Assembly (NCBI GenBank): GCA_965655095.1
Contig: OZ296650.1
Coordinates: 119,102,001-119,166,000 of the forward strand
Length of the DNA: 64,000 nt
Origin: Haplodiscus bocki
Taxonomy: Eukaryota
Reading direction: 5' to 3'
Of this stretch, positions 15,671 through 33,099 are shown piece by piece. How positions within the stretch are numbered: position 1 is the first letter of the stretch; each line of letters opens with the position of its first letter. The translations under genes were made by a program, and so were the position numbers. A model generated the notes under the pieces. The model had not been told where the DNA came from and searched no databases. It saw only the letters and a program-made list of their open reading frames with translations.

Positions 15671-15805
15671 ACCTGGAGAAGTTTCCAATACCCTACTACA
15701 ATATTCTCAACCTTCAAGACACAAAGTACAACAACAAGCCACCTTCTTAGGGTCCAAAAACGTTTTGTATTGATATAAATCGGTTGCAAACCATATTTCT
15801 ACAAA

Positions 15806-16552
15806 ATGGTCAAAAAAAGGAAAAAAAGTTCAACAAAAACCTGTCCATGCTCTACATGCTCTGCTGAATTATCAGACAATTCCAATTCCATATGTTGCGA
15901 TTCGTGTAATAACTGGCATCATGGGTCTTGTGTGAACTTATCTGCTGAAAATAATTCTTTCCTTGGGAGTAGTAATAACCCTTTTTGGAAATGCAACAGT
16001 TGTATTTCCATTGTTACGCCACTTAAAACACTGGAAGCGAAAATTGACTCCGTCCTATTCAAACTAGAAGAACCCAGAACTGAAATACAACCAGCTCAAC
16101 CCTCAAAACCTATAGAAGTATTACAAAACAATAAATATGATCATCACTATAGAGTTCGTATTTCCGGAATTAGTGAGAGCAAAGAAAAATCATTTATTGA
16201 TAGACAATTTGCTGATAGAGAAAAGTGGAAGAAGTCTTTAAAAAACTAAATGTCAATAGTCCAATTAACGGAACAAACAGACGTGGTAAATTGAAGATCG
16301 CCAAAGAAAACTAATAGCTACTTTCTCATCACCATGCGATGCGCGTTTAGTGATATCTAGTGCAATTCAGAAAAAATTATTTGAAATCGATAAAATTCTT
16401 ATTACAACGGATTTATCACCATCAGATCTTGCAATAGAAAGAAAACTATTATCAAAGCGCTATGAATTGATATCCAATGGTGTGCAAAAGAAACTCTGAA
16501 AATACGTTACTTGAAACTTTATCAAGCCAATAAAGAAGTGAACGTCGACTGA
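15806..16552 (+). pseudogene. LINE ORF1 with N-terminal PHD finger (frameshifted after about 16230)
   Basis: CSTC...ICCDSCNNWHHGSC...WKCNSC (C4HC3), followed by VRISGISES. Confidence 0.88.
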
Positions 16553-19336
16553 CTAAATAAAGAAGCAAAATGTCTTTTAATCAATTGTCAGAGCCTTCTC
16601 TCACTTATTCGTCGCTTATCGTTACTATCAAAGGTAAATTTCATAGCGGCCGAAATTGTTTTTTTGCACCGAAACTCGGCTCGATGAAAATTTTACACAA
16701 AATATTTTTCCTGACGACAACTATTCAATTATAAATCGTTCGGATAGATATACTGGTTCACACGGCGGTGTATTGGTTCTGTCTAGAGAAAGTTTAAAAG
16801 TGCGCAAAGTATCTCTAAATGCCGATTTTATGTGCTCAGTTATCTATAACAATGTACTTATTATTACCATATACAATCCACCCTTTACCAGTGATTTTCG
16901 CATGAAAGATATTATTCTGACAGAGAATATCGATAAAACTATTTCCAAAGCCAAATGTGACAACGTTATTATTTGTGGTGATTTTAACGTGCCAAAAATC
17001 GATTGGAACAGCATGACTGAAAGCACAACTTCAGAGTATCCCTTATTCCTCGAAATGCTAATTAAAAACGGCTGTGAACAAATTTTTACTTCACCCACCG
17101 ATCAATCTGGAAATATTTTCGACTGTGTGTTTATAAATTATGGGTCAACGCACTTTACCATAGATGAAAATTCATTTTCCGATTACTATTTTGTTGAGTT
17201 CGACATTCCTAGAACACACTCTTCATGTGACTCTACATCTCAGCCTATACTATCCCTTAAACCAGATTACCCAATAATAAAACAGTGTATCGGATCTAAT
17301 TTATTCTCATTTTTTATACCTGATAAGACTGCCTATTATTCCCACTGGATTGGAGAATTAACCTCCATTATTCAACCCTTCTTCAAACGTGAGCGGCAAA
17401 GAAGAACCCAATTTCCTAGCTTTTACTGTTCGCACACTATTCACATGCTCAACAAGCTCCATACTACACACAGAAGAATCAATCGACAACCAACGTATAT
17501 TCCCACACCATCAGTTCAAATATTATCCACCAATGTAGAAGAATCTATTGCCCTTGATACCCATATATTCATTGAAAAGTTTGTAGACGCGAATCTGAAC
17601 GTTAATGATTGCAATAAACTAATCAATTCTTTCCAACGTAGCAATAAATAACCAGCTTGTATGACTCTAAACGATGAAATCCTAATTGATGATCTTAATA
17701 AAACGAATGGTTTCAACAAACGTTTTTGCAGTGTTTTTAAGAGAGACAGTCTACCAATTTCTGATTTCTCTGAAAATAACCTAAGCAATATTGAATTCAC
17801 AATTCAAGACGTCGATAAGGCTCTACGACAAACAAAACGTGGTTCTAGTACAGATGCTATTAATGGTGATTTCATCTTACAGACTTCTATTGCACTGGGT
17901 ATCCATTACCATAATTTATTAAAGAACTTGTTAAAACACTCATATTGGCCAACTGAATAGAAGCAAGCTATAATAACACCCCTTCACAAATCTGGTGATA
18001 TCAAATCGATATAAATTTATAGACCAATTTTTTGTTTATCAAACATGTCATTAGTATTTGAGCGCTTACTGTTCAATAAGTCATATGATTTCTTCGCCCC
18101 CCAACTATCAGGCTCCCAATTTGGTTTTATGAGACGCAAATCCACGGTGCTACAACTAATAATTTAATTGCAGGCTATCTACAATAACGTTGACACAAAT
18201 ACAGATTGTTATGCACTTTATCTGGATTTCTCGATTTCTCAAAAGCATTTGATAGCGTATCTCACGCGACGGTACTCAAAAAATTACGCTTTTTTGGTAT
18301 TGGAGGATCTTTGCTAAGATTGTTATTTAGCTACCTAACAAACCGCGTTCAATGCGTTAAACTCAACAATATTATATCAGCGTCATTACCAGTCACCAGT
18401 GGCGTGCCTCAGGGATCGATTTTGGGTCCACTCCTTTTTTTGATTTTTATCAACGAACTGCCAACCCAAGTATCGCACTCAAAAACTTTCCTGTATGCCG
18501 ATGATCTTAAGCTTATTCATAACAACCTTCTAGAAATGCAAAATGATATATTAGCACTTTTTCAGTGGTCACAGGTAAACAAATTATCTTTCAATGCCAA
18601 AAAGACACAGCTCATTTCATTCGATTTTCGGTCTCAAGACTGCATCACAGATATTCCAGTTCTTATCCTGGATGACCATGAAATATTTCTTCAAAAAAGC
18701 GTGGTTGATCTCGGTCTATCTTTTTCGAGCAACTTAGCTTGGTCAAAACACATATCTGATCGTCTAAAAGCATGTTACATTAGAATTATATCTTTAAGAA
18801 GATGTCTACCGCTGCATTTACATAGCCAAATCAAGACTAAATTGTATAAGACCTATATTATGCCAAAATTACTTTACGGGTCACAAGTTTGGTCCCCGAA
18901 TCGGAAAGACCTATCTAAATTAGAACAGTTCCAGTAAAACGTCTCAAAGCGGATATGCAAGGGTGCTACATACAAGACTAGATTAATCTCGTCCAGTTTA
19001 CTTCCTATAAATCTTCTCCTGAAAATAAACGATCTGCTATTTCTCAACCGAATCCTAAATGGCATGTATGATTTTGATTTTCATAACTTTTTATCAATCA
19101 CTTACCCCTGTGACAGTTTTTACTACAACACTAGATCTACCCTGAAGCCCGTTCTCAAGGTTAAATCAACTCGCACAAAACAGGCCGACAATCACTTTTT
19201 CCGGCGAATTGTTCCCCTGTCAAACTGGTTGATGAAGGAGCAAAATGTCGACTCTTTCGTTGAGCCTAACATCTTCAAACCTCGAGTGAAACAGTTGTTC
19301 AAACGCTTATTTGCATCAGATGAATATGTTTTATAA
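16550..19336 (+). pseudogene. LINE ORF2: AP endonuclease + reverse transcriptase, disrupted
   Basis: TETRL, GGVL, ICGDFN (APE); LDFSKAFD, GVPQGSILGP, LYADD, DLG (RT); internal stops and frameshifts. Confidence 0.95.
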
Positions 19337-20258: not shown

Positions 20259-20730
20259 TTATTTTATAAAATAAACACAAAGGACCAACAAACTAACTGA
20301 CAATCTTTGAAAAAACCTGACATTCTCGAGGATTACTCTGACAGAAAAATCTGACAGTCGTGGAATGAAGAGAAAAAAATGAGTCGCAAACAAACAAGAG
20401 AATCTAAAAGTCGCAGGCGGACAAAAAACTTCGCCAGTCGCAGACGGACGTAAAAATCTGTCAGTCAACGACAAGCAAAAATGACACATACCAACATACG
20501 ATAAAAAATGAGTGCAAATGTGAATTTTAAGAAAAGTGAAGTAGCAAACGAAGAGAAGCTACCCTGATCTGATCAATCAACCCGTGAGGAATTTGGCATT
20601 TGTGAAAAAATCATTTGAAAAAAGTCCAAACATCGATGATAGTGTATCGTGGATTCTTAGCCTTGGCTGATGTGAAGTTTTAAAATGTCCATTGGAACAT
20701 TGTCCAGACAATCCTGCACCTTTAGAGGAG

Positions 20731-21107
20731 TGTAAATTTTTTGGGTTGATACTAGTTTGAGATATCTTTGTTCTAGTTTTTCTTCAGAGCGGGGCGTGAG
20801 GAAGACTTTAGAGAAACAATTTTATTATCGATCATTTATAGCCAACTCTTCAAAAGAGGCCCGATTCTTTTTTTTTTTTCGAAATCACTCATGCGGATAT
20901 TGAGGTGGTCAATTGTAATTTATTTTTTTATTGTTTTCTATTGTTCCGGATATTATTATTTTCCGGTCCGGGGTTGGGTTTTTATTACTATAGACAGATA
21001 GCTCCAATCTAAGTTTAGGGTAAAATTTTAAATTGGGTGGTTTCTTTCTAATCTACTAGTAGCGCCAATACATGAAATTTGCATACTAATATTCAAAGAA
21101 TATTACA
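20731..21107 (-). repeat. 3' LTR
   Basis: Aligns by eye with 32642-33016 (roughly 85-90% identity); AATAAA on the minus strand at 20821-20826. Confidence 0.96.
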
Positions 21108-21196: not shown

Positions 21197-23401
21197 CTAT
21201 TCGTGGTTGTCTGTTGAGTTGTGAGTATCGGGCTCAGGATTTCTTGTTGCTCTTAGTTGGGATTCAGGGACCAGCAGACTTTGGTTTCTCCACGGAAATT
21301 TCTCATCTTTCTCCAGTCCGGCTACATGTTGATCTTCCACCATCATGACTGGCTTTAATTGGACCGTCTGGTTGTCCAGTTTGTGGGAGAATGGTTTAAT
21401 TGTATGTTGTCGCTTGTATCTGTGTAATGCATAAGTAACACCCAAGTGTAGTGCTCCACTGACCAAAAACACCACCAAACCAATTGCAAGGTGACTTTTC
21501 CAAGATAGATAGTTGTTGAATTGTTTCTCAGGGACGGTTTTGGAGCTGTGTGTTTCTGCGCAATTGGTTGTGCAATGTAGTTCAAGTTTGAGCGATATGA
21601 ATGGTCTGGTTGGGATTGTAATTCCAGTTTCAATGAGTTCAGCAATTAAATATTCGCTTCCACGCGTGTATTATAGTGAGGGAGCTGGTCCACCGTTGGG
21701 ATGAGGCTGAATAATCTAGCCATTGGTTCCGGCAGTGTTACCTTTAGTTTCAGTGGTGGAACCTTCATACAGGTGCTAAAGTCAGATCTGATTCTAACGT
21801 TGGGACCTATCAATTGTTTCCCAGAGCTTAGGCTAACCATGCATATCTGACAGCCAACGACCATTATGGAGCCTGCTGTCGTTGTTGCGTTCATGTAGGA
21901 TTCACGTAACTTGAAGTTCGGTGAGGTTGAGGTTATGAGCCATATCCCATAACCTAAGTTCGTTGCTTTTTCCTTTAGGGGAAGTGTCACAGCTTCGGTA
22001 TCACAAACTTCAATTGCGTCCATAACGCTCCCAAAATAGAGCACTGCCAAGCATGATGCATCTGGTGTTTCCGTTGCCATCGATTCTTATATTTTTTATT
22101 ACAATTTTTATATTTGTTGGAGCCGATACATTTTCCCGATTGATCCCGTGTGAGCAATGCTGACTCTCTGAGATCTCCAGATATTGCGATGAACTCCGTT
22201 TCTACAGTCCACCTAATTGCATACTCTTTTTCCAATTGTGGCATGGGGACCACTATTGATTTGTAGACCGTAAAAACTGTTTGGCGGGATATCAGTGGAA
22301 ATGACATCGTCATCAGCAAGCTATCTTCTAGTGCTAGGACGCCTAGGAGTAGTCTCGCTTCATAATACGCCAGAAGCTTGTCCACGGGAATAGCCAAAGA
22401 TAGTCTGTCACGTGATTGTAGCTGTTCTGTAGCCACCTGTTGCAGAATAAATTCCAGAGATTCTTTCAGTAACAAGGACATCGGTACATAATGGGTGAGT
22501 AGGGAGGGGGGTATTGCTTTCATGATGTTCAATTGAAAGGCTTACAGTGCTGCTCTATAAGACTTGACATTACTGTATGTCAAGGATAGAAGTGATGAGA
22601 TGGTATCAAAGTTGAAGTTCACTTGTTGTCTTGTATAGAGTAGTTGATCACGATTTCTCATCTCGTGGATGGTTTGTTGGAAAACATTGAACTGTTTTTC
22701 AATTGTTCTCCAATTTCGGTTTTGTGTCTCAATGATTTGCCTCTGAATGCCATGTAACATCTCTAGTTCCTTCGATACCAAAAAAACTTGGCATCCGTTG
22801 TGTTTGCCAGCTGCTGAATGTTTTGACCCAAAGATATCGCGTATTCTCCCAGTTTTTCAATATTCCAGGCGTTCTGTTTTGCCTTTTCTTGACACGAGCC
22901 AAAAATACCCAAAATCCCACAATCTCCAGATCCAAACATAATGGCACCCCTGAATAAACCTATTGCGTCCCCGGCTGCGGCTGCTAATGGAAGGGCTCGT
23001 TTTTCCCGTCTCCTTTTGTTCTCTTGTTTACCCTTTGGGAATGATGCCACGTCACTCTTGATTTTTAGCAGTTCTGTTTGAGCAAAGGAAATTTCTTTTT
23101 TTGTTTCTTTAAGTAGCCAATCCAATTTGAAATCTACTTCACTTGTGTTTGTGAAGATGAGATAGCAAAAGTAATTTGGGGTTTGCCTCATTTTTTGGAG
23201 TGACTGTGCAATTTGATCAACACTCGAAATAAGGGTCGTTTCAAAGCGCGGGAAAGGGACCAAAAATTGGACATTGATAACTTTTTCTGCCAGGACGATT
23301 TTTGTTTCTTCATTAAAAAAAATTCCTTTGTCCAAACTGCCTTGCCGGCTATTAGCCTGAACTACGTGAATGAAACGAAATAAGAAAAGCATTTTGGACA
23401 A
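21197..23401 (-). pseudogene. env: env: class I (F-type) fusion glycoprotein, broken into at least 6 ORF pieces
   Basis: Signal peptide; furin site RRREKR; fusion peptide ALPLAAAAGDAIGLFRGAIMFG; heptad repeats; Cys-rich ectodomain; C-terminal TM VVFLVSGALHLGVTYAL. Confidence 0.88.
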
Positions 23402-23429
23402 AACTTTAGAGTTCTCAAGCGTGAGGTTC

Positions 23430-23771
23430 TTATACTAACATTATTAGGATCTCCATGTAGTCCAAGATATCAATATGTTTGGCTGTCAATTGCTTCTGTC
23501 CTTTCATGGTGTTGACTAGTTTTTGGAGTGAGTAGAAGAGGTGCTCAAATTCGGGTGTTTCCTCGTCAATGTCCATTATAACTAAGTTGCTATCCTTTTC
23601 AGTTGTGGCTTTAATAAAAAGGGGTGCACAAAATCCACATTGTTGAGTTTGAATGGTGTGGATGGAGATTGGTTGTAGCTTTCCTGGTGGAGTCCTTTTA
23701 AAAGGTTGCGAGAAAATAGCTTTTGTTGGAACTAATGTAACGTGCACTGTGAGGTCGCTTGATGCTGACAT
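23430..23771 (-). CDS. Provirus accessory ORF, 113 aa, function unknown
   Basis: Open ATG-to-stop ORF ending 28 nt before the env start; contains one CxxC. Confidence 0.55.
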   Translation of the reverse strand: MSASSDLTVHVTLVPTKAIFSQPFKRTPPGKLQPISIHTIQTQQCGFCAPLFIKATTEKDSNLVIMDIDEETPEFEHLFYSLQKLVNTMKGQKQLTAKHIDILDYMEILIMLV

Positions 23772-24399
23772 TGTGAGTTAATCACTGTGGGTTAATTTCT
23801 TCATTTCAAATATGTAAGTTGAGGCGCTTTGGAATTCGTTTTGTGTTCAGAAGTGACTTTTGACGTTGAGATGAAATTTTTTGTTCGTTGAGGCTGGGAA
23901 GGAATTACAAACTGTGCCGCTCTAGGGTTGTTGGTGACTCCTAAGCAAAAGTTGTGGGGGAGTTCTGCTACCAGCTGAATTTCAAGTAATTTTTAGAAGG
24001 AATGGGGCTGTTGGTGCCCAATGTAGATTCAATAAATACTCAGCAGTCTTGTGGGCGTCCTGTTGATTACATTACTCTGACGCGGATATTGACAGTTATG
24101 AAATTCAAAAAAAAATATTTCCGCAGCAATTGGAGAATTTTATTGAGGATAAGTTATTTTATTACTTGTCAATTTTCGACCGGATATTTATTTATCTGAC
24201 ATGATTAGAATGTACTTGCGCGGAAATGTTTAATTTCCACTTTAATATAATTGTTCTTTTGACAGAAGCGTGAATGGCGGCTTTTTTTACTTTTGTTTCA
24301 TTGCCGGAATATCTGTCTCCTTTGCTATGTCATGATTTGAATGACCTAAAATGTTGAATTTCGAACTGAATTCAATGTCTTTTTGAGCTTTTTCAGAAC

Positions 24400-24689: not shown

Positions 24690-24849
24690 GTCCGTACAGA
24701 CAGTTTGAACGCTGTCAGTATTTTATCTGTTAATTGGTTTGTTTTTTACATGTAACTTACTGCTGTGTTTACACTGCGTTTTTGAAGTTATGTACTCAAA
24801 ATGTGATCAGCCTATCTCTATCACTTGCTTCGGCCCATTTTAAATCAAA

Positions 24850-25662
24850 ATGGAACATGTGAAACTCCTTCTAGAGTTATGTCAGTCCAAGTGCAATTTA
24901 GTAGGTCAGGCGTCCGCAAGCGATGCCTTGATGTTTGACAATGTTACAGTGGTGCGTGGCCTTGCTTGCAGTTATAAGCTTGGTCATCTGCAGGAGTTAG
25001 CATTCCATTGTACCAATGTGGACCTTTTTAAAGAATCATTCACCAATTGGGGAGAAGAGCAGAGTAATGTAGAATTTCCAGCAACCCTGTTATTAACAGC
25101 TTTAATGCCAACCAAAAATGTTAACGATGTAGATAGTTGGATCAATAGTGCCATTGCACCTATGGAGATAATAGCTGACTCGATTTTATTAGTTGGCACT
25201 GGAAAATGCCTAAACGGTTTCCATTTAGATAACAAACCGCCTACTGAAGTTGTAGCTTCTTTGTTAAGAGGGCGCAAGTTATGGATTTTCGCTACTCGGT
25301 GGTCAAAGTCAGCAGCGCTGTTAGTGAAAAGTTCGGAGAATAACCAATTGCTACAGTTTATTGAGGATATGGTATACGGGGGCTTTAAAAATTTGTTATA
25401 TTGTCTCCAGGAGCCCGGTGACACTATTTGTTTTCCTACCAGAACAGTTCACTTTGTGTTAAGTGTGACCTCTGATAATGGGTGGAACTGTTTGTTGAGT
25501 TATAATATTCGTCACAGTGAGGAGGAGGCTAAAGTATGGGAAACAAACGATCTCAATTGCTGCAGTGCGCAATCGTCGCGCAATGTTCAAGGCGAACGGA
25601 CCAAGCAGTCTGGGGTGACTAAGAAGAGATTCACACCCCGGCGTAGAGTGCAGTCATCATAA
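24850..25662 (+). CDS. JmjC-domain 2-oxoglutarate/Fe(II) dioxygenase, 270 aa, antisense within the provirus
   Basis: GFHLD (HxD), LLRGRKLWIF (GxKxW), CLQEPGDTICFPTRTVHFV (QxPGD...H); basic tail KKRFTPRRR. Confidence 0.88.
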   Translation: MEHVKLLLELCQSKCNLVGQASASDALMFDNVTVVRGLACSYKLGHLQELAFHCTNVDLFKESFTNWGEEQSNVEFPATLLLTALMPTKNVNDVDSWINSAIAPMEIIADSILLVGTGKCLNGFHLDNKPPTEVVASLLRGRKLWIFATRWSKSAALLVKSSENNQLLQFIEDMVYGGFKNLLYCLQEPGDTICFPTRTVHFVLSVTSDNGWNCLLSYNIRHSEEEAKVWETNDLNCCSAQSSRNVQGERTKQSGVTKKRFTPRRRVQSS

Positions 25663-25715
25663 TGGTGAGTAGCACATTTTTTTCCTTTAGATTTACTGCA
25701 TCTAAGCTTTTCATT

Positions 25716-25992
25716 TATACCCTATTGTGTCGCAGTTGTTGTGGGCTGCGTGTTGAGCTATTTCTTTTGAAGAGTTGTCCGATGAAGTTTTAAGGTTCGC
25801 AGTGGCACAAGTTGGGAAGGTCGTGTCTTTTGGAAGTTTTTATTCATTTCATCTTTCTTCTAATGTACTCTGGTGTGCTGTACTGCTTTTGTATATACCC
25901 CATCGTGTTTTAGAGGTTATAGGCTGCGTGTTGAGCTATTTTGTTTGAAAAGTTGTCCTATGGTGTATTAAACTTCGCAGTGGCATAAGTTG
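25716..25992. repeat. Diverged ~100-bp direct repeat, period ~178 bp
   Basis: GGCTGCGTGTTGAGCTATTT...AGTTGTCC...TTCGCAGTGGCA at about 25744 and 25922. Confidence 0.8.
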
Positions 25993-26236: not shown

Positions 26237-29200
26237 TCAGTATTTGGTTTTAGGGATTGAAGCGACTAGTTTTGGAGGTAAGCATACTGTTATATTCACA
26301 GCCGAGCCTTTGAAAGTTTGTTGCAAAGTTTTGTGCACTACTTGCCATTGGAGGTTGTCAAGTCCACATCCGGGTCTTGGTAGACGAGTATGGTGGACTC
26401 TGTTGTGTTCAGCATGATTTCTCATCAACTGGAGGCCCATTATTAACGATTCGTCGAATGGTTTTTGGAAGAACTCGAATTTTGTCACCAAATTGTAGAT
26501 CCAACGTCTTGAATTTTTGTCGTGGTAGGCAAAAACTGACCCGGGGGTGAGATTGTTTGATGCTTTTTGTTTAATTTGTGGGTAAAGTTGGTTAAATTTT
26601 GCTGCTATTCCTGCTCCCATATGGAAGTCAGACGAAACGCAGTGTCCCATGCCGTAATTTTTACTAAAATGTTTTTCTGTGACAATTCTGATGTTCCGCC
26701 GTGTGTCATCTTCAATTGCATTTAAATCTAGGCGTTGTTTCTTTTTGTTGGATCCACTTTGTTGCGCGCCTATTCGTTGTACCAATTGCATCTCCTGGCG
26801 TTCCTTACGGCGATTATTAAGGAGGTCAACAAATTTATTAGCTTCTTTTCTGTCGCCCCGGGATGTTCGTTTGGTTGATTGCGTCTTCCTAAATTGTTTT
26901 CCTGCTGCATCGAAGAATCGGAAATCTTGGTATCTATTTTGGTTTTGATCTTGTTTTCTCTCTGAACGCCTGAACGGTTCTGTTGGTTCTACGGACTCAT
27001 CTGATTCTTCCGACGAGTCTGGAGTTTGTGTTTGTCTAAGGTGTTCGGGTGGTGTTAGTAATCGTATAGGCGCTAGCGTTGGATTGAGCCCTGGGTTTTC
27101 TGGTGGTACTACTACTGCTGCTGCAAAAGCTGGGGCTGATGGCTGTACGATTGTTCCAAACGATATAGAGACTCTAACTGGGCTATCAAAGTTTGTAGTA
27201 GTGGATGATGGTACTTGGTCTTCTTCGTTTTCCAAAAATGTTGGGAGACCTTTGTCGAAGTAGTCCTGCTCACCCCTATATTTGCCCAACTGTGGGTCTG
27301 TTTCAAATTTTTGTGGATCAATATCTGGAATATCGTCAATGGGGTATTGTGGGGTGATTGGTCTAAGTCTAATTCTGTGGACAATTTGTGTAAAATTCAT
27401 TCCCACTTTCCAAATCAAGTAGTTGGAGTCTTTTAGTACTTCCTAAATACGGTACAATGCTAACCCTTTTTAAATTAATTTCGGACTGAACGCAGGCTGT
27501 TCAGTCAATTTCGGATTCAAGAGTAAGCAAAACGTTTGTTCTTTTAATGGGTTTGCTCTTGCTTTTTGGTCATAATATCGTCGGTAACGAGCAAATGATT
27601 TTGCTAGGCTTTCTCTCGCATTCGAGAACTTGTTTAGCATTTCATCTCGGAGCGATTCCACAAAAGCATATTTGAATGCCGATTTCTGAATACATTTGCA
27701 GTAGAATCTCAAATCCAAGGTTTCCATTGGTTCTCTACCATGAAATAGGACTGTAGGTGAGCATCCAATCGATGTATGGTACGACGTGTTGTGGATGAAA
27801 GTTGCCAATGGTACGTATTTGTGCCAATTCGTGAAAGCTTGATTGCTATTCAGTCTCAAGATACGGGCCAAAGCTGCATGTGACCTTTTTACTACCCCTA
27901 TGGTTTTTAGGTGTTTTAGAGAAGCATGTGAGATTTCAAACTCCAATAGTTTTGTAAGTTCGTGTAGAAGTTCTGAGACAAACTGGGTTCCCAAATCCGG
28001 CATGATTTCTTTGGGGATATAGCTGTGGTTGAACAATATAGAAACTAGTGCTGAGGTTACTGTTGAATCACTCACCGTCGTCAACGGTACTGCAAACAAG
28101 TTTTTGGAGAAAACATCATTGGCTGTCAGAATATTTTTGTAAGGTGTCGTAGGATATGCTCCCATAATGTCTATTTGTAATATGTCTCCCGGAAGAGATG
28201 TTGTTGTGGTGATCTCTTGTAAAGGTGGTTTCAATCTAGATTGCTGAACTTGTTTAAACTGAAGGCACGAGGAACAGTTTTTGATATAGTCTGCAATCTT
28301 CTCAATGTAGTTTGGCTAGTAGTTCTAAATTCCGCAATTGTCCTGGTTATTCCCAGGTGTCCGCCTGTTGGTGAATTATGGATTCGATACAATGTTTCTC
28401 GCAGCATATCTTATAGAGGGTGGTACCATCGTGGTTATATTATCTACGTTTCAATTTTGCTTTATCAATTAGTAGTCTCGGGATTTGTTTTAGATATTTT
28501 TGTTCATCTCCTGTTGGGTATATGTTGTTGGTGAGCATGTTGCCGTCCGTTTTCCACTTTTTCACCTTTGTCAACAATTGATCAATTTGTAGTTCATTCT
28601 GAAATTGAGCCATCGTCATTTCAAGTTCCGTGTAGGTATCCATTGGGTTTGGTAGTTTGGTCGCGTTAAGTGCTTCTTTGTGAGCTGTGTATCTAATTAG
28701 CTTCATATCAGTACCATGCTCAGTAATGCCTTTGAGTCGTTGTGACGTTTGTGCGTAATTTCCAGATTGCTTCAGTGTTATCAAAGTATTTATGTCTACA
28801 ACTTGTAGCAATTCGTCCGGAAAATCATCTGCGAAGAGTTCATTGATTGTGTTGTCTGGCAATATTGCTTGGACATCTTTTTCTATTTCTCTAGTAGGTA
28901 TACGGTCGGTAAATTTAAGTTCAATTATTTCATTCGGGTTAGATTGCAGACGCGACCAAAAATCTGCCGCTGCATTTGCTTTTCCTGGTATATGGGCAAC
29001 TACTATGTTGAAGGCAGTTACTCTGTCTACGTAATTCCAAAGTGATGGAGGTATTGTTTTATCTCGGAAGAATCGGGATAGGTTTTTGTTGTCCGTTATT
29101 ATCAGCACTGGTTTATCGATTCCCCAAATAAAATGTGATAAGGTCTCTAATGCAAAGTAGAGCGATAGGAATTCTTCACATTATATTGACATTTTCAGTT

Positions 29201-31539: not shown

Positions 31540-32642
31540 CTCTGGTTGCAGTCTCTTGCATAATGGTTTGGCTATCCAAAAGTATAACAGATTTGCTTTG
31601 AGTAGCCAGTCTGCGCGATATGTCCATTATTTGACGACTCTTGTATTCCTGGGTTGTTGAATTGGTTGTAGTTTATGCGGCAGTAGCCTCTGTTGTTGTT
31701 GAATCGTCCGCGTCCTCTGTTAAAATTTCCACGTCCTCTAAATTCTCGTGGGTTGTTAATACTATTGTTTCCTCTATAGTACTGCTGTTGGTTATTTCTG
31801 GTGTAGTTCTGGTTTGTTGTCTGGATGTCGTTCAGTGAACTGATTCTGGTCGAGAGGTCATTCTGTTGTTGTTTCAGTTCTTCTTGCTGTTGTGTGAGGT
31901 TTGTTAGTGATCCAACCACATTTTCTGAAAGTGATGAACTCACCTCATTGAATGCATCTCTTGACCAATCGTCACTTGGGCATAGCTCAAGGAATACCAT
32001 CTGTCGTCTTGCCACTGTACATAAATCCTGTACGGTCGCCGTTTCATGCTGGTCCAATAATTTTCTCTTAATGAAGTTTAGCATTGCGATTGTTAAAAAT
32101 TCTTTTATTCGTCTGTTTCTTTCAATCATAGCGTTATCCAAAATGATTTGGTTAGCTGCCTGGGCTGCTGCAACTCTACTTATTTCTCCTTGGTCATTTG
32201 GTGGGTTCGCTGGTGGTATAGGAGGGAATACTGGGTTAGGGTAGGCTTGTGCTGATTAATTTTGTGTTTGAACCAAGAAGTACTCCGGGTTGCCAGTTTT
32301 GTGGTCAAGTTTCAGATTTTGAAGTTGCAGTTTCTGTAACTCCCTGAAGTTGTGGTAACAATAGTGCTTTCTGAGGGCTGTAATGGATAGATCAAAGTTA
32401 TCTCTTGTTGCTTGCGGTAGATTTCGAAAGAATTGTAATGCTTGGTCTAGTAGATGAAGTTGGAGGAATTGTAGTTGGTTTGCTACTGCAATGTTTCCAA
32501 AGTTGATTAAACTTCTGAGTAGGCTTTCAAAACCTGGCCAGTTTTCATCTGGTTTTCCACGGAACGGGTTGAGGGTGATGTGTGGTCGAGGGTTTGCTGC
32601 CGTTTCGATTTGAAGTTGTCCTAACTTCCTTCCTGGCACCAT
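31540..32642 (-). pseudogene. gag: gag with RG/N-rich region and degenerate zinc knuckle
   Basis: PFRGKPDENW...LQLHLLDQALQFF; CYTFG*PNHYARDC. Confidence 0.9.
32631..32641 (-). promoter_or_regulatory. Primer-binding site TGGTGCCAGGA (tRNA-Leu-like)
   Basis: Directly abuts the CA end of the 5' LTR; complementary to a tRNA 3' end TCCTGGCACCA; tRNA identity is inferred. Confidence 0.75.
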
Positions 32643-33016
32643 GTCTACTTTTTGGGCTGATACTAGTTTGAGATCTCTTTGTTTTAGTTTTTCTTCAGAG
32701 CGGGGCGTGAGGAAGACTTTACAGAAACAACTTTATTATCGATCGTTTACAGTCAACTATTCAATAGAGGCCCAATTCTCCTTTCATTTCGAAGTCACTC
32801 ATGCGGATATTGAGGGGGTCAATTGTAAATTATTTTAATGGCTTTTTATTGTTCCGGATATTACTATTTTCCGGTTCGGGGTTGGGTTTTCTTTTACTAT
32901 AGATAGATAGCTCTATTCTAATTTTAGGTTGTAATTTTAAATTGGTGGGTTTCTTTCTTATCTACAATTAGCGCCAATACATGAAATTTGCATACTAATA
33001 TTCAAAGAATGTTACA
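32642..33016 (-). repeat. 5' LTR
   Basis: TG...CA termini; aligns to 20731-21107. Confidence 0.96.
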
Positions 33017-33099
33017 AGGAGCGAACTAGCTGGAAAAATTAGTTCGCTAATGGAGAAAAAAGAGCAGCAGTAAAAAGCCTAAAACACTACTCACTAATC

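Follow-up and report, generated by a model that had tools for sequence, protein, structure and literature searches.

The window analysed here is a stretch of 64,000 nucleotides from Haplodiscus bocki (assembly GCA_965655095.1, contig OZ296650.1, positions 119,102,001 to 119,166,000), a species with a genome of 1.5 Gb. It contains an LTR retroelement with broken gag, pol and env regions and, on the opposite strand, an uninterrupted reading frame with the motifs of a JmjC dioxygenase. The locus raises the question of what this frame encodes, whether it belongs to the element or has become a gene of the host, and what such an enzyme might do for a retroelement.

The element and its antisense reading frame

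The element is a Ty3/Gypsy retrotransposon with env, the features of which are all present: LTRs, a target-site duplication, gag, the order PR-RT-RH-IN and a third, env-like ORF. Its parts and those of the antisense frame are listed below in window positions.

20726-20730 and 33017-33021: 5-bp target-site duplication flanking both LTRs
20731..21107, minus strand: 3' LTR, 88.7% identical to the 5' LTR over 371 nt (LTR comparison)
21200..23777, minus strand: env region, broken, with weak likeness to baculovirus F protein (Baculo_F, E 0.016, below the cut-off)
24816..24849, plus strand: site at which the family has its splice-acceptor-like motif, ahead of the start codon; the window copy lacks it
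24850..25662, plus strand: JmjC-type dioxygenase ORF of 270 aa, a predicted KDM2/7-like catalytic core standing alone with a basic tail (translation, profiles, AF2, VIA)
25222..25230, plus strand: H125-x-D127 (H125-L-D127), predicted Fe(II) ligands 1 and 2, aligned to the HxD of PHF8/KDM7
25276..25278, plus strand: K143 in GRKLW, predicted 2-oxoglutarate-binding Lys, aligned to the Lys of the PHF8 GEK
25450..25452, plus strand: H201, predicted Fe(II) ligand 3, kept in 28/29 copies
25579..25659, plus strand: basic tail, predicted to be disordered and NLS-like or nucleic-acid-binding, with 9 K/R and 1 acidic residue in 27 aa
26237..31626, minus strand: pol with PR, RT, RNase H, IN and macrodomain, interrupted by stops and shifts of frame
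26285..26665, minus strand: TARG1/OARD1-like macrodomain at the C-terminal end of Pol behind the integrase (E 1e-20 to PDB 2lgr/4j5q)
31575..32603, minus strand: gag, broken
32642..33016, minus strand: 5' LTR, with a primer-binding-site-like TGG start behind it

Translation of the window reveals no stop in 24850-25662 (+) over the 270 aa, and the open frame reported in an earlier note on this DNA, with HLD...H, the GRKLW lysine and the C-terminus KKRFTPRRR, was recovered in full. The position given for it, antisense to gag, pol and env, with pol ending at 26237 on one side and env running down from 23777 on the other, was likewise borne out. The env region of the window element is conserved in sister elements, and the macrodomain is widespread in the element family, with at least 150 matches in the genome. 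Two 106-nt direct repeats (79%; window 25709-25814 and 25887-25992) lie in the stretch that separates the JmjC stop from the pol end, in which the two convergent transcripts would finish.

Predicted fold and nearest enzymes

A profile search of 1.84 billion protein representatives gave 83 hits, among which are distant unnamed proteins of ~200-300 aa that share the core and in many cases have a basic tail. A search of the PDB with the single sequence or a narrow profile gave no match. Broadened profiles rank ceKDM7A, PHF8, KDM7A and PHF2 first (E 4e-7 to 3e-4), followed by JMJD6 (E 1e-3) and KDM2A. Against Pfam JmjC (PF02373) the window protein alone scores 18.3 bits, where the curated cut-off is 24; the domain is found in 17 of 21 family members at E up to 0.1, and the curated cut-off is passed by four of six distant relatives. 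In the ESM Atlas JmjC-like clusters appear at 0.94, with recognition just below the threshold, and are a lead only. No longer or fused form of the protein was found among 7995 candidates, which is weak evidence.

An AF2 model from 21 close sequences (pLDDT 37) was not used. The model from 72 sequences reaches a pLDDT of 86 and a pTM of 0.82, with a disordered tail (pLDDT < 50 for residues 249-266), and is predicted to form the double-stranded β-helix of JmjC proteins, in agreement with the earlier assignment; the top rows of both Foldseek and VIA are JmjC proteins. By Foldseek, JMJD5 and TYW5 lead by E-value, and the highest query TM-scores are those of PHF2 (0.58) and PHF8 (0.55). Ranks 1-20 of VIA are KDM2/7 proteins (Z 15.6-13.7, rmsd 4-6 Å for most), led by PHF2 (15.6), KDM7A and PHF8 (both 15.2) and KDM2A (14.8) over ~225 residues, with JMJD5 and FIH next (13.7 or less); the lead of KDM2/7 over these two is only 1-2 Z units at an rmsd of ~5 Å. 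The model matches the KDM7 core from residue 1, and in VIA the C-terminal helix behind the barrel also aligns with the KDM2/7 core. KDM2/7 proteins are nearest by both profile and VIA, with the identity of the window protein to any solved JmjC being 9-16%. On this confidently modelled fold the protein is a predicted Fe(II)/2-OG dioxygenase with a KDM2/7-like JmjC core.

The active site was compared with that of PHF8, for which Tyr234, Phe250 and Asn333 are described as methyl-lysine pocket residues (PMC13632499). In sequence alignment, which is not a superposition of side chains, the copies have N, D or S at the position of Phe250 and I or V at that of Tyr234, neither of them aromatic, and a small residue stands in place of the VWYH-strand Tyr. 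Asn333 is apparently kept as N219 (aligned by eye at that end), which is found in 25 of 26 copies of the window family and in only 11 of the 37 rows of the wider-family alignment A2. In A2 the His, Asp/Glu, His and Lys occur in 35, 31, 36 and 35 of the 37 rows. Pfam finds no PHD or CXXC reader domain in the ORF. Because the PHD is absent and the equivalents of Phe250 and Tyr234 are not aromatic, the protein is, as judged from alignment and model, a stripped KDM2/7-like core and not a member of KDM7.

The KDM7/KDM2 proteins (PHF8, KDM7A, PHF2, ceKDM7A and KDM2A) share with the window protein the best profile and structure match over the whole core, the HxD...H, the Lys and probably the pocket Asn. 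They differ from it at 12-15% identity; the window protein lacks PHD, CXXC and F-box as well as the two pocket aromatics, is encoded by a retroelement and has its basic tail directly behind the core. With the hydroxylases JMJD5, TYW5, FIH and JMJD6 it shares a small, stand-alone JmjC fold and, for JMJD5 and TYW5, the top Foldseek E-values, but here the Z-scores are lower (13.7 or less versus 15.6), the profile scores are weaker and nothing points to the substrates of these enzymes. A tree of 32 rows, with no KDM7 row, left the deep forks unresolved and singled out no donor or order of transfer. Among the host's own genes there are some that we take, by motif, to be KDM4-, KDM5-, KDM6-, KDM7-, JMJD4- and JMJD6-like; the JMJD4-like ORF scores about equal to one exon of the KDM7 gene.

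Copies in the genome and selection

The window protein has at least 142 matches in the genome at 28-84% identity (matches not being equal to copies), and the best 30 of these were compared in detail. At 27 of the 30 loci the other strand carries a pol tail no more than 1.5 kb away. When ten wider stretches of 20 kb were inspected, pol and env flanked the JmjC gene in nine and the full order gag-pol-JmjC-env was seen in eight. The window ORF is an accessory gene of an env-bearing Gypsy family, placed antisense between pol and env. At one locus (L041, G000:C6:78.057-78.061 Mb) the slot of a single element contains a broken JmjC copy and an open one.

The predicted ligands are well conserved among the copies (H125 in 26/30, D127 in 28/30, H201 in 28/29 and K143 in 27/30), and the triad, conserved among the copies, is complete in 22 of the 29 that cover all three sites. 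At position 122, a predicted 2-OG contact, one residue is common to 29 of 30 copies and the window copy is the sole exception. The word intact, used in the earlier note, holds for the triad and the Lys, with this contact as a qualification. The basic tail, earlier called NLS-like, is conserved among the copies and is present in distant relatives too.

Selection was gauged from pairwise and net-divergence estimates of dN/dS. The net value between subfamilies B1 and B2 is 0.18 (bootstrap 0.11-0.26); for other subfamily pairs dS is saturated and pN is 0.22-0.40. Pairwise values, with 283 of 435 copy pairs saturated, are 0.17-0.27 in distant copies and ~0.6 in close ones, where drift after insertion dominates. 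These figures indicate purifying selection on internal branches, and not a ratio of about 1. In one element pair dN/dS is 0.25 for JmjC, 0.07 for RT, 0.06 for IN, 0.20 for PR and 0.19-0.40 for env, the macrodomain being left out as an out-of-frame row of 13 codons; the constraint on the JmjC gene is weaker than on RT and IN and similar to that on PR and env. On sequence and model, active elements very probably encode a functional dioxygenase.

Related families and exchange of the slot

The gene has relatives in other elements. In five of six stretches a second family, with 41 genome matches, is found in Bel/Pao elements, antisense and with the integrase on one side and the 3' LTR on the other.

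L071/L072, L073/L074, L075/L076, L081/L082 and L083/L084: Bel/Pao elements with an antisense JmjC-type gene beside the 3' LTR

In three stretches with paired LTRs the gene starts at the LTR edge or within ~60 nt of it, which suggests an LTR-driven antisense promoter for the Bel/Pao JmjC-type genes. The JmjC motifs are present in this family and the window protein is matched within those loci at E 1e-8; Pfam gave no hit for it. A third family, decayed, lies behind a Bel/Pao-like integrase in one of two stretches. At L070 a Polinton/Maverick-like element, with a protein-primed DNA polymerase B and integrase-like and capsid-like ORFs, adjoins a Bel/Pao-family JmjC copy.

A fourth family (J4) has 118 genome matches, many of them open, and is found antisense beside env in all 20 sampled distant Gypsy elements, the end of pol being visible in 16. 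Its alignment (A4) contains HxE...H and the Lys, with His, Asp/Glu, His and Lys in 19, 19, 19 and 20 of 20 rows. Comparison with the first family by hhalign gives 98.5% and E 1.6e-15; Pfam JmjC was found in 0 of 20 members and the PDB search was without match. On the hhalign result and the motifs, J4 appears to be a JmjC-type family.

Elements with closely similar flanks can differ in the slot. Between L123 and L133, identity is 91% and 95% in the 3.5 kb to either side, and the slot proteins are 43% identical; L104 and L135 have flanks 90-95% identical and slot proteins only 28% identical. The flanks of L103 are 90-93% identical to those of L104, yet its pol-env slot contains an unrelated antisense gene, apparently multi-exon.

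L103:1155-2346 (G000:C5:74.318 Mb), minus strand: unrelated antisense slot gene, the last piece with at least 150 matches

This gene may be OTU-like, going by its motifs; Pfam reported 0 families for the piece. Slot genes have been exchanged between elements whose flanks are 90-96% identical.

Elements without the gene were surveyed at 20 macrodomain-bearing loci picked for having no first-family match nearby. Four of them (L085, L086, L096 and L097) represent a JmjC-free lineage that has multiplied, with the slot shared at 83-88% identity; the JmjC gene is therefore not required in cis. Among the remaining loci, three retain only the last 60 codons, and the others have a deletion, other cargo or no env in view. 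Read from these sequences, the gene belongs to an old family of exchangeable cassettes found in two LTR superfamilies. It is an element gene, and the single capture in one provirus that was first suggested does not describe it.

Expression signals

A pyrimidine run followed by AG lies 6-8 nt before the start codon in 19/25 copies, against 11% at background positions; the count spans most subfamilies, and the copies are related and not 25 independent cases. Since the distance from acceptor to start varies, a coding upstream exon is unlikely and a non-coding leader exon is favoured. No conserved splice donor was found, the GTRAG sites near -320 not being homologous between subfamilies. From the acceptor-like motif a 5' intron in the family transcript is likely, and the term intronless, used in the earlier note, fits the uninterrupted coding part but probably not the transcript.

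Proposed role and alternatives

The explanation that fits best, which is given about an even chance, is that of an antisense Gypsy accessory gene for a predicted KDM2/7-like dioxygenase, likely nuclear, that would undo host methyl-based silencing of the element. Nuclear location, substrate and effect are suggested by the basic tail, by the resemblance to KDM2/7 and by the accompanying second eraser-type domain in the same elements, the Pol macrodomain. KDM7 enzymes are described as removing H3K9me1/2 and H3K27me1/2 (PMC13632499). A KDM2/7-type gene would have been captured long ago and stripped of its reader domains. It would be expressed as an antisense unit of its own with a spliced 5' leader, and the basic tail would bring the protein to the nucleus or to nucleic acid. 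There it may oxidise methylated lysine on histones or silencing proteins, acting in trans as well as in cis, and the modular slot would change hands as host defences change.

A nuclear anti-silencing histone demethylase or hydroxylase had been proposed from the outset. The JmjC fold, the triad, purifying selection and the basic tail are in its favour, but the PHF8 pocket is not matched and a reader domain is absent. A counter-silencing role in general is rated as evenly poised, and a histone lysine demethylase in the strict sense is less likely than not. In its widest form, the proposal would have Gypsy and Bel/Pao elements share swapped antisense counter-defence cassettes, whose JmjC enzymes would erase repressive histone methylation from proviruses, paired with the ADP-ribose eraser of Pol; taken whole, this is rather unlikely.

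The lost aromatic residues of the PHF8 pocket and the missing reader domain would also suit an enzyme that hydroxylates or demethylates something other than chromatin. Candidate targets are a splicing or restriction factor of the host, a ribosomal protein, the element RNA and a tRNA base tuning gag-pol frameshifting. JMJD5 and TYW5, first by Foldseek E-value, are consistent with such a target; gag and pol are in different frames in sister elements, the basic tail could bind RNA, and the wybutosine state of tRNA-Phe is described as linked to retroelement frameshifting (PMC2938197). However, the sequence profiles and the whole-core structural alignment favour KDM2/7, including the post-barrel C-terminal helix, and a target away from chromatin, though a serious rival, is considered somewhat unlikely. 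If it were nevertheless the case, the enzyme would point to an unrecognised host defence or a translation step altered by retroelements.

A mainly non-catalytic protein, one that would bind silencing proteins or methylated histones and serve as scaffold or decoy, would account for the several cofactor-side and pocket positions that depart from KDM7, and fast divergence and slot swapping fit a binding arms race. Non-catalytic action has been proposed for fission-yeast Epe1. Against this, the metal ligands and the Lys are kept across families <30% identical, in the proportions given above for A2 and A4, and such a function is improbable.

State of the window copy

The silencing-related role preferred above concerns the gene in active elements; the copy in the window is likely an old, decaying relic. 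Its LTRs are 88.7% identical, compared with 95-98% in six sister elements (one other pair has 82% and one is without match). The region upstream of its ORF is a mosaic of two subfamilies. Private changes of this copy number 20 nonsynonymous and 9 synonymous, a ratio of 0.63 (p 0.26 against neutral), in a test that is low in power because there are only 29 of them; they fit neutral decay.

An ORF that is open where gag, pol and env are broken, between LTRs that have drifted 11% apart, could be taken for a host-domesticated gene that selection at the locus maintains. Openness by luck is plausible, however: by simulation an ORF of 270 codons stays stop-free with a probability of 0.09-0.31 at 3-7% divergence, and an arithmetic estimate from 11 stops in ~2950 aligned gag/pol/env codons gives ~0.37. 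Open ORFs occur in other copies too, and it is the window copy alone that departs at position 122; the acceptor motif is missing from it as well. Together with the neutral-like private changes this makes domestication at the locus very improbable, and the caution in the earlier note, that openness alone does not show it, was well placed. That the frame is a chance opening or the shadow of a sense-strand function, as the single-protein Pfam score under the cut-off and an overlapping 154-aa minus-strand frame might suggest, is refuted by the coherent AF2 fold and active site and by six-frame stop counts in three copy pairs (0-1 stops in the JmjC frame versus 15-38 per pair in the other five), with divergence between copies greatest at third codon positions, and its probability is negligible.

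Relation to known systems

In full-text searches of literature other than most subscription papers, Repbase reports and supplements, no paper turned up that describes JmjC genes carried by LTR retrotransposons. Antisense ORFs, proposed to encode nuclear regulators, are described in Retand (TRP28), Grande, RIRE2, Boty and HTLV-1 (HBZ) (PMC11963269; PMC7264820), and share with the window element a conserved antisense ORF downstream of pol. In the available text of these sources they are not described as enzymes, whereas here a recognisable dioxygenase is predicted, in animal elements, in a slot between pol and env and as an exchanged cassette. As far as these accounts go, no function is known for the additional antisense ORFs that LTR elements carry, and one of them can now be recognised as a probable enzyme.

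Epigenetic enzymes are known as cargo of DNA transposons, namely TET/JBP in fungal elements, SET in HarbingerS/MuDR and VANC of Vandal (PMC12730594). Like the JmjC gene, they are proposed to counter silencing and have passed between transposon lineages; unlike it, they are reported from DNA transposons only, and that source found no retrotransposon with TET/JBP and contains 0 occurrences of JmjC. Viral JmjC genes, as in giant viruses and LbFV, whose ORF11/13 are described as taken from the host (PMC5381508), are also host-captured, and the LbFV protein appears at rank 37 of the viral fold hits. They belong to large dsDNA viruses and encode proteins of 577-780 aa, with likeness at the fold level only (15% identity).

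Little is settled about the ways in which retrotransposons of animals evade silencing based on H3K9 and H3K27. The JmjC slot gene has hundreds of matches in at least three divergent families, and because natural sister lineages with and without the gene exist, element-encoded anti-silencing is directly testable.

Other repeats

Three further repeats were observed. At G000:C1:120.05-120.18 Mb (L094) the pol tail and macrodomain form a tandem array with a period of ~1.5 kb and dozens of units. Within the window, 15779-19336 (+) is a broken CR1/L2-type LINE with a PHD-finger ORF1, endonuclease, RT and a (TACA)n tail at its end, and 50669-51889 is a tandem duplication with a period of ~609 nt, 83-90% identical.
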